Below are positions 19,476 through 26,583 of a stretch of DNA of 64,000 bases, in pieces. The notes below the pieces were generated by a model, which was given only the letters and a program-made list of their open reading frames with translations, was not told the origin of the DNA and did no database searches. Within the stretch, counting starts at the first letter, position 1. Each line of letters begins with the position of its first letter. The translations under genes were made by a program, and so were the position numbers. This DNA is from Thermodesulfobacteriota bacterium (lineage in GTDB: Bacteria > Desulfobacterota > Desulfomonilia > UBA1062): contig DAITOA010000014.1 of the NCBI GenBank assembly GCA_036834365.1, forward strand, positions 6,825-70,824. The letters are read 5' to 3'.

Positions 19476-20243
19476 ATGCGTATGGTCGAAAACATAGGTA
19501 GAATGACCATCTCCTTCCTGGAGGAGCTGGGGGCCTTCTTCATCTTCTTCTTCCAGGCCGTCTCTCAACTGGCGAGGCCACCGATCTTTCTGAAGCAGTA
19601 CTTCAAGCAGATGGAGTTCATCGGGATCCGCTCCACCCCTGTAGTCATGCTCACCGGCATATTCACCGGCATGGTAAGCGCCCTCCAGACCCATCACGGA
19701 TTCAGTCTGTTCGGTGCGGAATCTCTCGTCGGCTCTACGACGGCCCTCGGCCTTCTCAGGGAGCTCGGACCCGTACTTGCCGCACTCATGGTCACGGCCC
19801 GTGCCGGATCGGCCATGACCGCCGAGATAGGCATCATGCAGGTGACGCAACAGGTGGACGCATTGGTCGTCATGGGGGTCAACCCCTTCAAATATCTGAT
19901 CATCCCGCGTGTCGTGGCCACCGTCATCATGATGCCCATGCTGACCCTCATTTTCGATGCCATCGGCATGATCGGGTCCTATATCGTGGGGACCGTCATC
20001 CTCGACATCGATAAAGGCGTATTCATGGCACGGATCATGGAGTATGTCTCCTATGAGGACCTCTTTTCCGGCCTCATCAAGAGTTGCTTCTTCGGTGGTA
20101 TCCTGGCGGTCGTGTGCTGCTTCAAGGGGTACAGCACCAGCGGAGGGGCCGAGGGGGTTGGGAAGTCGGCCACACAGTCCGTGGTCATCTCATCGGTCAG
20201 CATCCTGATCGCCGATTATATGCTCACCGCCATCATGTTCTAG
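19476..20243 (+). CDS. mlaE: MlaE family ABC transporter permease
   Basis: RELGPVLAALMVTARAGSAMTAEIG, QQVDALVVMGVNP, PRVVA, GAEGVGKSAT. Confidence 0.92.
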   Translation: MRMVENIGRMTISFLEELGAFFIFFFQAVSQLARPPIFLKQYFKQMEFIGIRSTPVVMLTGIFTGMVSALQTHHGFSLFGAESLVGSTTALGLLRELGPVLAALMVTARAGSAMTAEIGIMQVTQQVDALVVMGVNPFKYLIIPRVVATVIMMPMLTLIFDAIGMIGSYIVGTVILDIDKGVFMARIMEYVSYEDLFSGLIKSCFFGGILAVVCCFKGYSTSGGAEGVGKSATQSVVISSVSILIADYMLTAIMF

Positions 20244-20662
20244 GTAACGGATGAGTACATGGTGATGGCTTCCACTGGACACTCCAGTGAGCAGAATCCG
20301 CACCCGATACATGCCTTTTCCTCCTTGAGGTAAGGATATCCATGGGGATACCCGCTGTCATGGGCTCCTGAGAGTGCAAGGCAGTTCACCGGGCATGTCT
20401 CGATACACATATTGCATGACATGCATTCATCACTGTTCACCCGGGGCTTTTTCCACTGGCTCCTTTTCACCATGGCGCACAGGTTTCCGAGCTGATCAAG
20501 AACCGAGGTATGGGGGCATATACGGCCACAGGCACCGCATTCAATGCATACAACCGGATCAATGACATGGATCTCTTTCTTCTCACCGGATATGGCGTTC
20601 ACAGGACAGATTTTCTTGCACGCCTGGCAGCCGACGCATGATTGGGTGATCGTAAACGGCAT
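20240..20662 (-). CDS. Polyferredoxin with four [4Fe-4S] motifs, partner of the AOR
   Basis: CVGCQACKKICP, CIECGACGRICP, CMSCNMCIETCP, CIGCGFCSLECP. Confidence 0.93.
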   Translation of the reverse strand: MPFTITQSCVGCQACKKICPVNAISGEKKEIHVIDPVVCIECGACGRICPHTSVLDQLGNLCAMVKRSQWKKPRVNSDECMSCNMCIETCPVNCLALSGAHDSGYPHGYPYLKEEKACIGCGFCSLECPVEAITMYSSVT

Positions 20663-20681
20663 ATCTTTCCTCCTGCGTTTC

Positions 20682-23603: not shown

Positions 23604-23619
23604 CCGGGGAGGCTGATCC

Positions 23620-26583
23620 ATGAACAAGATAAATGCAGCAAACATAGCCACCAATCTTGTCCTGCGCATCATGGCACTGCACTTTAACCTGTTTGACAAG
23701 TTCAGAAAATATCTCAGGTCTGCAGATGGCTGGATCAACTTCACCGTGGGGCTCAGCACCGAAACCGGCAGCGTCAGGCAGGCCATCACCTTTTCCGAAG
23801 GGAGAGCCCGGGTGCCCCGGAGGATTCCAGAAAGGGTGGACATTGAACTCGTCTTCATGGACAACGATGTCCTGGCAGAAATGACCAAATTGCCCCCCAA
23901 CGAAGTCCTCAATCTGATATTGAAGAACAAGCTCACCATAAAGGGAAGCCTCGTCTATGCACAGATTTTCAACTTCTTCATCTCGCTGCTCATGAGGGGC
24001 AAGCAGATCAATATGATGAAGAAACAGGTCAAAGACCACATGAAGGAACTGTGCTCGACCATGCCGGAGCCGAATGAAAAAAGGCCGCCTGCCGGAAAGG
24101 CAAACATGAAGGCCGACATGGTAGATCCCGGGGTGCGATTCATCACCGATGACCCCTATCTTTCCGGATTCTCCCTTGATGATTTTCCCAGGTTGAAGAG
24201 GTTTCTTGATATCCATCTCAATGAGAAGCCCTCCATCTGCCACGAACGACCTTTGTTGCTGACCGAGTGGTTCAGAAAAAACGGTTTTGAGACGGACAGC
24301 TCAGGTAACCCATGGGTTCCGGAGTTGAGGCAGGCCAATGCGTTCAAACACCTCATGGAAAACCGTAAGCCCATCATCCGCAAGAATGACCTCATCGCCG
24401 GTACCACCACCACCAAGGAGATCGGGGTTGTGATCTATCCCGATTCGCATGGAACCATGATATGGGGGGAGCTTCTGACGGTTCCGTACCGGCATCTGTT
24501 CCCCTATGACATAACAGAAGAGACCATATCCACTCTGCACCATGAAGTGTTTCCCTTCTGGACTGACAGAAACTTCAGAGAATGGGTGCGGAACACCTAC
24601 AAGAATCCGTTATGCCAGCAGCTCGATGAAAGATTTGCCGTCTACTTCCTCTGGAAAACTGTGGCGCTTTCCCACACGGTGATCGATTATCCGAAGCTCC
24701 TTCGGATCGGCGCCCGGGGAATCATACAGGAGCTCGAGGAAGAGCTTCTCCGTAATGAGGGGGCGGACCAGTTGAAGAAAGACACCATCCAGTCCATTAT
24801 CCTCTGCTATGAAGGGCTCATTGCCTACGCCCGGAATCTGTCCGCCCAGGCTCGGTATGAGGCAGCGCGTGAACCGGATCCAGCGAGAAAGACTGAGCTT
24901 GAGAGGCTCTCCGAGATCTGCTCCAAGGTCCCCGAACAGGGGTGTGATACCTTGGACGAAGCAGTCAACGCCATCTGGATCCACTGGGTGGGTGTCCACA
25001 TGGAGAACACCAATGCAGGGTTCTCACTGGGCCGGATGGATCAGTGGCTGCAGCCCTTCTTCATTTCCGACCTGAAGAAGATCAGATCCAAGGCCAAGAA
25101 AGAAGCATACATCAAGCATGCCATAGAGCTTATAGGCTGCTTTTACCTGAGGTGCACCGACCACCTCCCCCTCATCCCGGACATCGGAAACTACCTCTTC
25201 GGGGGAAGTTCCTCGGATCAGGCCGTCACCCTGGGTGGCATCACACCTGAAGGGGAGGATGCGGTCAACGACATGACCTACATCTTCCTCAAGGTCACCG
25301 AGATGCTGGGGATACGTGATCCGAACGTCAATGCCCGGTACAATAGGGAAATGAATTCGGCCACCTACCTCAGGAGACTCTGCGAGGTCAACCTGAATAC
25401 CACGGCAACCCCATCCATCCACAATGATGAGGTTGTGATGGGTTCGCTTCGTGAGTTCGACTATCCCCCTGAACATCTCAGGGACTGGGCGGCCACCGGG
25501 TGCGTCGAACCCACGCTCTCCGGCCGGCACCTCGGGCATACCAACTGCATGATGTTCAATATGGTGGCTGCACTGGAGATGTCCATGTTCAACGGCCACC
25601 ATCCCCTCATGCGATGGAACGTGGGGCCGAAGACCGGAGACCCAGCTGACGGGTGCTTCAAGACCTTCGATGACTTTTTCGAGGCCTTCTGCAGACAGCT
25701 CGACTTCCTCGTCGACAACGTATGTGAGTATAACAGGATGCTTGGTGAGGCACACAGTGTCATCAGACCGACACCCTTCATCTCGGGCCTGATCGAAGGC
25801 CCCAGGGCAAAGGGCCGTGACGTCACCAAGGGCGGCGCGCTCTATAATTCTTCAGGCACGGCTTGCATCGGTCTGGCGGATATAACCGACTCCCTCCTCG
25901 TGATCAAGAAATTGGTCTTCGAAGAGAAAAAAACAACCCTTGCAGAGATCAAGAAGGCTGTGGAGACGAATTTTATCGACAATCCAGTTCTGCACTCAAT
26001 GGTGCTCAAGAAGGTCCCTCTCTTCGGTTCAGGCAATGAAGAAGCCGTGGACATGGCAAACCGGATCACGAAGTATATCCATGACAGATTCGGCGAGAAG
26101 GTGAACTACAGGGGAGGCCAGTATACGACGGGTTTCTGGTCCATGTCCAACCATGTCGCCTTCGGGACACTGACGGGTGCGCTTCCTTCGGGAAGACTCG
26201 CCTACAAACCCTTCACACCCGGACTTACACCCGAGGCACATGCTTCGAGGAATCTACTCGACAATATCCGCGATGTGGCTCAGCTGGTGCCCGAACACAT
26301 GAACAACAACATCGCGTTCAACGTCAAGGTCGTACCCTCAGCCAAGGACGGTCATGATACGACTGTCGACCACATCTTCGCATATGCCAAGACCTACTGC
26401 GACCTGGGCGGCATGCAGATGCAGTTCAATGTCGTCTCGTCCGACACCCTTCGTGATGCCATGCGCCACCCGGAGGAATACAGAAATCTCATGGTACGGA
26501 TATCCGGATATAATGCATACTTCGTGACCTTGAACAGGGATATGCAGCTTGAGCTCATCGAGCGGGCAGAATACGGTCTCTAG
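23620..26583 (+). CDS. Glycyl radical enzyme (PFL2/dehydratase-type) with N-terminal SCP2-like domain; function unknown
   Basis: Gly loop MVRISGYNAYF (Gly963, nt 26506), Cys loop TGCVEP (Cys628, nt 25501), SLGRMDQ; about 130-aa N-terminal extension matching the SCP2 pattern. Confidence 0.9.
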   Translation: MNKINAANIATNLVLRIMALHFNLFDKFRKYLRSADGWINFTVGLSTETGSVRQAITFSEGRARVPRRIPERVDIELVFMDNDVLAEMTKLPPNEVLNLILKNKLTIKGSLVYAQIFNFFISLLMRGKQINMMKKQVKDHMKELCSTMPEPNEKRPPAGKANMKADMVDPGVRFITDDPYLSGFSLDDFPRLKRFLDIHLNEKPSICHERPLLLTEWFRKNGFETDSSGNPWVPELRQANAFKHLMENRKPIIRKNDLIAGTTTTKEIGVVIYPDSHGTMIWGELLTVPYRHLFPYDITEETISTLHHEVFPFWTDRNFREWVRNTYKNPLCQQLDERFAVYFLWKTVALSHTVIDYPKLLRIGARGIIQELEEELLRNEGADQLKKDTIQSIILCYEGLIAYARNLSAQARYEAAREPDPARKTELERLSEICSKVPEQGCDTLDEAVNAIWIHWVGVHMENTNAGFSLGRMDQWLQPFFISDLKKIRSKAKKEAYIKHAIELIGCFYLRCTDHLPLIPDIGNYLFGGSSSDQAVTLGGITPEGEDAVNDMTYIFLKVTEMLGIRDPNVNARYNREMNSATYLRRLCEVNLNTTATPSIHNDEVVMGSLREFDYPPEHLRDWAATGCVEPTLSGRHLGHTNCMMFNMVAALEMSMFNGHHPLMRWNVGPKTGDPADGCFKTFDDFFEAFCRQLDFLVDNVCEYNRMLGEAHSVIRPTPFISGLIEGPRAKGRDVTKGGALYNSSGTACIGLADITDSLLVIKKLVFEEKKTTLAEIKKAVETNFIDNPVLHSMVLKKVPLFGSGNEEAVDMANRITKYIHDRFGEKVNYRGGQYTTGFWSMSNHVAFGTLTGALPSGRLAYKPFTPGLTPEAHASRNLLDNIRDVAQLVPEHMNNNIAFNVKVVPSAKDGHDTTVDHIFAYAKTYCDLGGMQMQFNVVSSDTLRDAMRHPEEYRNLMVRISGYNAYFVTLNRDMQLELIERAEYGL

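Follow-up and report, generated by a model that had tools for sequence, protein, structure and literature searches.

The Cassette and Its Genes

The stretch of DNA considered here (the window; 64,000 nt of contig DAITOA010000014.1, assembly GCA_036834365.1) comes from a Thermodesulfobacteriota bacterium and carries a cassette of four genes in two divergent arms (Table 1). The minus-strand arm encodes an aldehyde:ferredoxin oxidoreductase (AOR) and a polyferredoxin, and the plus-strand arm encodes a TetR-family regulator and a glycyl radical enzyme (GRE) with an N-terminal SCP2-fold domain. This GRE belongs to a large, widespread and uncharacterized family, referred to here as SCP2-GRE. An earlier interpretation of the locus from its letters and open reading frames (ORFs), the sequence-only reading, had proposed that the GRE releases an aldehyde which the AOR oxidizes to an acid while reducing ferredoxin. 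Renewed ORF calls and Pfam searches returned the four genes with the identities and coordinates it had given. The intergenic region of 267 nt between the arms is exact, and the ferredoxin, described as carrying 4x[4Fe-4S], indeed has four CxxCxxCxxxCP motifs, at residues 9, 39, 80, and 118.

Table 1. Features of the cassette and of its surroundings (positions in the window).
Feature	Position	Strand	Basis or remark
Polyferredoxin, 140 aa, four [4Fe-4S] motifs, directly downstream of the AOR gene	20240..20662	-	Pfam Fer4 + dicluster
AOR, 653 aa, tungstopterin family, AOR sensu stricto type	20682..22643	-	Pfam AFOR_N + AFOR_C
Intergenic spacer, exactly 267 nt	22644-22910
Two degenerate (2-mismatch) operator-palindrome copies, AOR-proximal (22740-22750, 22755-22765)	22740..22765		window only
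Promoter-like match TTAGCA-16-TATTAT facing AOR, overlapped by the AOR-side palindromes	22766..22739	-
Putative tetR-GRE promoter	22837..22865	+	conserved block, alignment of 14 syntenic spacers
Tandem 11-bp palindromes TAACAcTGTTA and TAACAtTGTTA, 14 bp apart; candidate cognate TetR operator	22867..22891
TetR-family regulator, 230 aa, TetR_N + TetR_C_33, 16 nt upstream of the GRE gene	22911..23603	+	Pfam
GRE, 987 aa, PFL-like + Gly_radical	23620..26583	+	Pfam
GRE N-terminal SCP2-fold domain, residues 1 to ~135	23620..24024	+	alignment, profile, structure model
GRE variable charged linker, residues ~136-165	24025..24114	+	low conservation, pLDDT 51-59
GRE catalytic core	24115..26583	+	Pfam, alignment to GDH 1r8w
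GRE Cys loop G-C628-V-E630-P	25498-25512	+
GRE glycyl radical site R-I-S-G963-Y	26506-26508 (G963 codon)	+
Junction where sister loci hold an activase (~310 aa) and an Exo_endo_phos gene, both absent here	26584..26588
glpK	17957-19474
Thioredoxin TrxC; syntenic neighbor within the lineage, without evidence of a role	26589..27038	-
Fatty-acid-CoA ligase family protein	27517..29157	+	NCBIfam PRK12583 730 bits, cutoff 832
Long acyl-CoA dehydrogenase; lineage-syntenic context	29430..31328	-

A Glycyl Radical Enzyme of the Eliminase Type

The GRE comprises a barrel of the pyruvate formate lyase (PFL) type (PF02901, E 1.8e-158, residues 198–849) and a C-terminal glycyl radical domain (PF01228, E 3.1e-23), the catalytic part beginning around residue 166. 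In an alignment of 282 family members, the radical Gly of R-I-S-G963-Y is kept in 280, the other two having gaps at this position. The motif C628-V629-E630 on the Cys loop is invariant, as is H352, which corresponds to His164 of glycerol dehydratase (GDH) in the alignment to 1r8w. A CXE motif on this loop defines the 1,2-eliminase class of GREs, and the members of this class form aldehydes, with HypD as the exception (PMC7077986; PMC13450708). The invariance of both the CXE motif and the His164 equivalent supports the assignment of the enzyme to the 1,2-eliminase type, as it had already been classed from the sequence alone. With the solved eliminases (1r8w, 5i2a, CutC, and HypD) it shares the barrel, the glycyl radical domain, the G-C-V-E-P loop and the His at the GDH-164 position, and the activases of sister loci share the ferredoxin-like insert. 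It differs from them in an extra ~165 N-terminal residues of SCP2 domain and linker, in substrate-contact positions (AG, GGSSSDQ, TNCMM, and GFWSM) that are invariant within the family, and in its surroundings, since neither a microcompartment nor a CoA-acylating aldehyde dehydrogenase nor an iron alcohol dehydrogenase (Fe-ADH) lies near the window GRE.

A search of the PDB is consistent with this assignment. The solved eliminase-type enzymes, namely glycerol dehydratase, Archaeoglobus fulgidus PFL2, propanediol dehydratase, CutC, and HypD, match about equally (1e-110 to 1e-97), whereas X-succinate synthases, decarboxylases and PFL match far more weakly and the isomerases PflD and YbiW are also more distant. 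An X-succinate synthase was considered and rejected, as MasD and TutD reach only 1e-55 and 1e-53 compared with 1e-110 for the eliminases; the lack of small ORFs conserved beside the GRE also disfavors this class. Fifteen residues after C628 the GRE has Cys643; X-succinate synthases presumably carry an Arg at this distance from the catalytic Cys, as in benzylsuccinate synthase. The second-best PDB match is A. fulgidus PFL2 (2f3o, 3.8e-109), which has the GCVE sequence in common with the window GRE but is a protein of 776 aa without an SCP2 domain. The function of PFL2 is disputed, both glycerol dehydratase and alkylsuccinate synthase having been proposed (PMC13450708).

None of the NCBIfam GRE models gives the enzyme a score that reaches its curated cutoff, and the general PFL2/GDH model TIGR01774 is no exception (475 bits, cutoff 678). 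A residue-by-residue alignment shows that H281, S282, Y339, D447, and Y640 of GDH are replaced by A466, G467, D533, N642, and W840. These five positions and their neighbors are invariant or nearly so in the 282 family members, in which the stretches GGSSSDQ, GCVEPT, TNCMM, GFWSM, and RISGY are conserved. That the specificity positions are fixed family-wide, and differ from those of GDH, argues that the family holds one conserved substrate which is neither glycerol nor propanediol. A B12-independent glycerol dehydratase passing 3-hydroxypropionaldehyde to the AOR is accordingly a very improbable identity, even though the Clostridium butyricum glycerol dehydratase is the best single PDB match and the ferredoxin gene is separated from glpK by 0.8 kb, a proximity that had been seen before. 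Apart from the replaced substrate residues and the shortfall against TIGR01774, the SCP2 domain attached to the enzyme speaks for a hydrophobic ligand and the glpK linkage is confined to the window's lineage. The earlier view that the glycerol route fits this active site less well is thereby upheld, and a propanediol dehydratase is rejected on the same residues and score.

An N-Terminal Domain With the SCP2 Fold

Residues 1 to ~135 of the GRE are conserved across the family and are followed by a variable charged linker. Taken alone, this N-terminus has no Pfam match at E≤0.1, the SCP2 model included, and a profile of the domain matches only SCP2 chains in the PDB, weakly (E 0.67). The AlphaFold model of the domain (pLDDT 76.5) has the helix and strand order of SCP2. 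All of the top 41 Foldseek matches (E below 2.5e-3; best E 3.6e-6) are of the SCP2 type, among them UbiJ-SCP2, AF1534, eukaryotic SCP2 and the alkylsulfatase SCP2 domain, the best ones reaching target-normalized TM-scores of 0.6–0.69 (maximum 0.69). The “SCP2” label attached to the GRE by the sequence-only reading is thus borne out by the structure model, despite the missing Pfam match. Among 1.84 billion representative proteins, the domain profile retrieved only 261 representative clusters, most of which are members of the GRE family or fragments of them; this argues for a family-specific variant of the modeled SCP2 fold.

The SCP2 fold is also found in the alkylsulfatases SdsA1 and Pisa1 and in UbiJ, where it is joined to an enzyme or an assembly protein that handles hydrophobic or amphiphilic molecules, as may be the case here. 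The catalytic domains are unrelated, however, sequence identity is only 10–19%, and the domain is C-terminal in the sulfatases but N-terminal in the window GRE.

Distribution of the Family

Relatives of the GRE were collected from species-representative genomes (379 stretches) and from metagenomes (372 stretches), and a protein search gave 922 clusters at E≤1e-50. The family members are ~990 aa long and 60–80% identical across at least eight phyla. The best 120 of the 922 clusters (~980–1000 aa, 64–80% identical) come from Desulfomonilia, Smithella/Syntrophaceae, Desulfobacterales, Myxococcota, Spirochaetota, Chloroflexota, Actinomycetota, and Bacillota, and no annotation among these 120 is more specific than “pyruvate formate lyase family protein.” Hundreds of species carry a member of the family, their sources being peat, sediments, digesters and rumen. 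The eliminases characterized so far are the dehydratases of glycerol (GD) and of propanediol (PD), HpfG, HypD, HypG, HpzG, CutC, IslA, IseG, and HpsG, according to a review of June 2026; all of them lack an SCP2 domain and act on small, polar substrates rather than on lipids (glycerol, propanediol, choline, hydroxyprolines, and sulfonates; PMC13450708). Targeted literature searches returned nothing on the SCP2-GRE family, nor on a GRE with a sterol carrier protein, with an AOR or with polyethylene glycol acetaldehyde lyase.

Some loci hold more than one GRE. Two tandem SCP2-GRE paralogues precede a single activase in L029 (1865–7978), L063 (3257–9395), L146 (1476–7589), and L147 (197–5251), the upstream copy being 53–61% identical to the window GRE. 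A second, unrelated GRE (24–27% identical) lies a few kb from the SCP2-GRE in L137 (2949–6647), L134 (3–2090), and L079 and L081 (~17250–20580); an activase of its own accompanies it in L079, L081, and L137, whereas L134 is truncated at the contig end.

Carbonyl-Active Partners of the GRE

ORFs were called in 160 related loci and the neighbors classed with seed proteins; 79 of these loci are complete, that is, fully flanked by at least 2.5 kb on each side of the core. The recurrent core is tetR-GRE-activase, or activase-GRE in loci of the Bacillota type. Among the complete loci, the activase adjoins the GRE in 69, and in 56 the gene immediately before the GRE encodes a TetR orthologue. Carbonyl-active enzymes follow the core in 46: an AOR in 16, all from the window's own lineage; an extended short-chain dehydrogenase/reductase (SDR) of the Epimerase/3beta-HSD-like type (“EPI”) and/or a classical SDR in 27; and an aldo-keto reductase (AKR) fused to a 4Fe-4S dicluster domain (AKR-Fer4) in three. 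The EPI/SDR partners are NAD-dependent and stand directly after the GRE or the activase, and in one further locus the gene right behind the GRE encodes a semialdehyde dehydrogenase. AOR is never found at one locus with EPI/SDR or with the AKR. The GRE of L085, which is trailed by an AOR, is 85% identical to GREs trailed by an AKR (L079) or by nothing (L086); with such different neighbors around such similar enzymes, the carbonyl partner appears to have been exchanged among close relatives. This swapping of unrelated carbonyl enzymes supports the view that the product is an aldehyde.

An alternative is that the GRE gives a ketone from a secondary alcohol, by dehydration or cleavage, or acts as an isomerase, the NAD-dependent partners then being the true pathway enzymes. 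The commonest partners are the 3beta-HSD-like extended SDR and the classical SDR, which are typical for secondary alcohols and ketones, and HpsG does yield hydroxyacetone, while GRE isomerases exist as well (PMC13450708). AOR and semialdehyde dehydrogenase, on the other hand, are enzymes of aldehydes and not of ketones, and PflD and YbiW are more distant matches than the eliminases, so that this alternative appears rather improbable. Searches of the PDB with the EPI and SDR proteins gave generic family matches only and no clue to a substrate.

EPI and the classical SDR are fused to one protein of ~629 aa in six loci (L056 at 13933–15822, L061, L065, L069, L075, and L077). An epimerase-family gene in the window itself (335 aa, 41299–42306) was considered and proved unrelated to the EPI of the cassettes. 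In two loci of the Bacillota type (L091, 4194–5156; L084, 3403–4314), the gene right after the GRE encodes an esterase/lipase-like alpha/beta hydrolase (BD-FAE, PGAP1-like), which could hint at an ester-linked precursor.

The TetR Regulator and Its Predicted Operator

The regulator has a TetR helix-turn-helix (HTH) domain (PF00440, E 2.2e-13) and gives generic family matches in the PDB. Two exact palindromes (22867–22877 and 22881–22891) lie 44 and 30 nt before its start and are the only exact copies of TAACAnTGTTA in the window. The related loci, 2.5 Mb in all, contain 84 exact matches as opposed to ~2–3 expected by chance. Nearly all of them lie no farther than ~50 nt upstream of tetR, and they come from Desulfomonilia, Smithella, Spirochaetota and one Bacillota locus. 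The motif occupies −50 to −19 of tetR in ~38 genome loci and in 29 of 45 metagenome loci, and related loci without TetR also lack the motif. The tandem palindromes are therefore best seen as the putative operator of the cognate TetR. A Smithella contig, L004, has an insertion right upstream of tetR (2509–8937) with genes for an integrase, a D5-type primase/helicase and a DnaG-like protein; the insertion is absent from the otherwise identical L001–L003.

An alignment of 14 syntenic spacers (window and 13 relatives; 121–346 nt) revealed that only the tetR-proximal ~75 nt are conserved. Within them, a TTGACA box is separated by 17 nt from a TAATAT-like box, and the two palindromes stand at a distance of 14 bp from each other. 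In the window, the −35 box TTGACA lies at 22837–22842 and the −10 box at 22860–22865, where it reads TACAGG instead of the TAATAT of the relatives. From its sequence, this layout is that of an autorepressed TetR promoter. As in known autorepressors of the TetR family, an HTH domain is predicted to act on tandem palindromes over the −10 of its own promoter; the C-terminal domain, in contrast, is TetR_C_33, which has no close solved relative.

The sequence-only reading had noticed related palindromes in front of both arms and implied that the arms are co-regulated. The tetR side of this observation stands, its palindromes being exact and conserved, whereas those on the AOR side are degenerate and specific to the window. 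The AOR-side sites carry two mismatches each, are marginally enriched (local shuffle P ~0.02) and are absent from all 13 syntenic relatives in the spacer alignment. Co-regulation of both arms thus has no conserved sequence basis in the 14 spacers and, with the AOR-side sites not conserved, control of the AOR is unproven. In the shortest spacers (121–169 nt), the AOR promoter would lie close to the operators, which makes co-regulation of the AOR possible.

Loss of the Activase Gene

In sister loci (L010, L012–L018, L020, L175, and L177), the activase gene stands right after the GRE and is followed by an Exo_endo_phos gene and trxC. Both intervening genes are gone from the window and its closest relatives; in the window, the GRE stop lies 5 nt from trxC. 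One locus, L011, retains the Exo_endo_phos gene only, which suggests that the two genes were lost in two successive deletions. The identical activase-less junction is present on 17 independent contigs and so is not an assembly artifact.

The deletion raises the alternative that the GRE is silent or inactive in this genome, in line with the position of the activase directly downstream of the GRE in sister loci and the uniform junction of the 17 contigs. The GRE nevertheless has an intact reading frame and all catalytic residues, and dN/dS is 0.05–0.09 within the activase-less clade compared with 0.10–0.14 in activase-bearing relatives, at saturated synonymous divergence. On these ratios the GRE is under strong purifying selection, and silence or inactivity appears improbable. 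Since the enzyme is intact and dN/dS is low, we infer that it is still in use and that the gene of its activase lies elsewhere in the genome. In a search with the L010 activase as query, the Desulfomonilia matches inspected all adjoin their own GRE.

The AOR–Ferredoxin Module

The minus-strand enzyme has the domains (AFOR_N, 1.8e-72; AFOR_C, 1.2e-100) and the cluster motif CxxCxxxC (at residue 318) expected of the tungsten/molybdenum aldehyde:ferredoxin oxidoreductase family, to which it is assigned on this basis; its best PDB match is the AOR of Pyrococcus furiosus (1aor, 2e-94). Within the window's lineage (GRE 72–81% identical), the whole stretch from glpK, mlaE, the ferredoxin gene and aor through the divergent tetR and GRE genes to trxC, the ligase gene and the acyl-CoA dehydrogenase gene is syntenic. 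Adjacency of AOR and GRE within this lineage therefore proves little by itself.

Outside the lineage, the GRE is linked to an AOR in five loci (L022, L044, L085, L112, and L117), all at contig ends, where the AOR is co-directional and 0–400 nt from the GRE. L022 has the GRE followed on the same strand by an AOR of the window's type (70% identity). The order is GRE-ferredoxin-AOR in L044 and L112, activase-GRE-AOR-ferredoxin in L085 and tetR-activase-GRE-AOR in L117, and these four loci have an AOR subfamily only 27–32% identical to that of the window.

The AOR subfamily of the window also occurs in Syntrophales (67–69% identity), with the same four-cluster ferredoxin directly downstream and two flanking Fe-ADH genes (L166, 9508–12549; L167, 3949–6905; L168, 4016–6981); the ferredoxin pairing was seen in L166 and L168. 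The aldehyde source in these clusters would be the pair of iron alcohol dehydrogenases, as opposed to the GRE in the window. Found with Fe-ADHs in Syntrophales and with GREs elsewhere, the AOR–ferredoxin pair looks like a portable aldehyde-oxidizing module that is attached to various aldehyde sources. The three Syntrophales clusters also hold a conserved 176-aa protein without a Pfam match.

Surroundings of the Cassette

According to the annotation of the window, glpK and mlaE lie upstream of the cassette, and trxC, the fatty-acid-CoA ligase gene and the long acyl-CoA dehydrogenase gene lie downstream. The ligase gene is present in all syntenic loci of the lineage and in no other lineage; the ligase is a possible activator of the acid product, a role for which this synteny is the sole support. 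An Rfam scan found no RNA element in 19500–27600. Farther downstream, 32068–38616 encodes a SHOCT-domain protein, four consecutive ORFs without a Pfam match (424, 416, 234, and 209 aa) and a ParA/MipZ-like ATPase, and from ~48000 to 64000 the G+C content climbs from ~0.53 to 0.60–0.63, remaining high up to the window end.

Proposed Pathway and Its Alternatives

The following pathway is proposed for the window. The tetR and GRE genes would form an autorepressed operon, with TetR sitting on the two tandem TAACAnTGTTA palindromes at the −10 of its own promoter until it is released by a ligand, probably a hydrophobic one. The GRE would act as a 1,2-eliminase and draw in a hydrophobic or amphiphilic substrate by means of the SCP2 domain fused to it. 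In the activated enzyme, a thiyl radical at C628 would take a hydrogen from the hydroxyl-bearing carbon, E630 would deprotonate that substrate hydroxyl, and H352 would help to expel the group on the neighboring carbon, with an aldehyde as the likely product. In the Desulfomonilia lineage, the divergent AOR would turn this aldehyde into an acid and pass the electrons to the four-cluster ferredoxin, and the CoA ligase and acyl-CoA dehydrogenase nearby may feed the acid into beta-oxidation. Other lineages would reduce the same aldehyde by means of the extended and classical SDRs or of AKR-Fer4. We regard the combination of an aldehyde-forming GRE, an aldehyde-oxidizing AOR in the Desulfomonilia lineage and an autorepressed tetR-GRE operon as having about an even chance of being correct.

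Several observations weigh against this pathway. No cognate radical S-adenosylmethionine (SAM) activase of the GRE is encoded anywhere in the window, an absence which had been missed in the sequence-only reading. No carbonyl enzyme of the surveyed kinds is found near the core in 33 of the 79 complete loci, and SDR, EPI and AKR enzymes would act on ketones too. In the spacers, no operator is conserved on the AOR side and the AOR-proximal part is itself not conserved. The adjacency within the lineage belongs to a longer glpK-mlaE-ferredoxin-aor synteny and could have been inherited without function, and none of the complete loci from outside the lineage has an AOR, nor do more than 5 of ~130 non-lineage loci overall; most homologous GREs are thus not linked to an AOR, an outcome that the sequence-only reading had itself named as speaking against its idea. 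Finally, the same AOR subfamily with its ferredoxin stands beside two Fe-ADHs, in the absence of a GRE, in the three Syntrophales contigs.

Alternatively, the AOR–ferredoxin pair may be a general aldehyde or alcohol module, placed by chance beside tetR-GRE, with the GRE product handled by other enzymes. In favor of this are the confinement of the adjacency to a single syntenic clade, in which glpK and mlaE are conserved as well, the Syntrophales clusters and the unconserved AOR-proximal half of the spacer. The five further adjacencies, however, come in other arrangements and involve a second AOR subfamily, the AOR is mutually exclusive with the EPI/SDR partners, and in L022 the same type of AOR is still next to the GRE despite rearrangement. 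Chance placement is therefore considered an appreciable possibility, though a clearly smaller one than the pathway proposed above. For the window's lineage, the aldehyde route from eliminase to AOR is the best reading and is supported in part: the linkage recurs in five loci outside the lineage, but judging from the neighborhoods the AOR is one of several interchangeable, generic partners and not a signature of the family.

As to the substrate, we tentatively suggest, as a possibility short of an even chance, that SCP2-GRE is the first glycyl radical eliminase for a lipid or amphiphile. The bond broken would be a C-N bond or a C-O bond (of an ether, ester, or hydroxyl) adjacent to a hydroxyl, and the aldehyde released would go to a lineage-specific, swappable module, here the ferredoxin-reducing tungsten AOR. 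Conceivable substrates are compounds of the kind of alkylglycerols, long-chain 1,2-diols, alkoxyethanols or sphingoid bases.

The SCP2-GRE family with its cognate TetR and operator is a more interesting object than the AOR link. The family is new in joining a lipid-carrier fold to an eliminase core with an invariant, distinctive active site, and the conserved TetR and operator offer a handle for finding the inducer. If the family does convert hydrophobic hydroxylated compounds into aldehydes, it would represent an unrecognized anaerobic route for the breakdown of lipids, ethers and surfactants, and coupling to a ferredoxin-reducing AOR would make this step energy-yielding for syntrophs.

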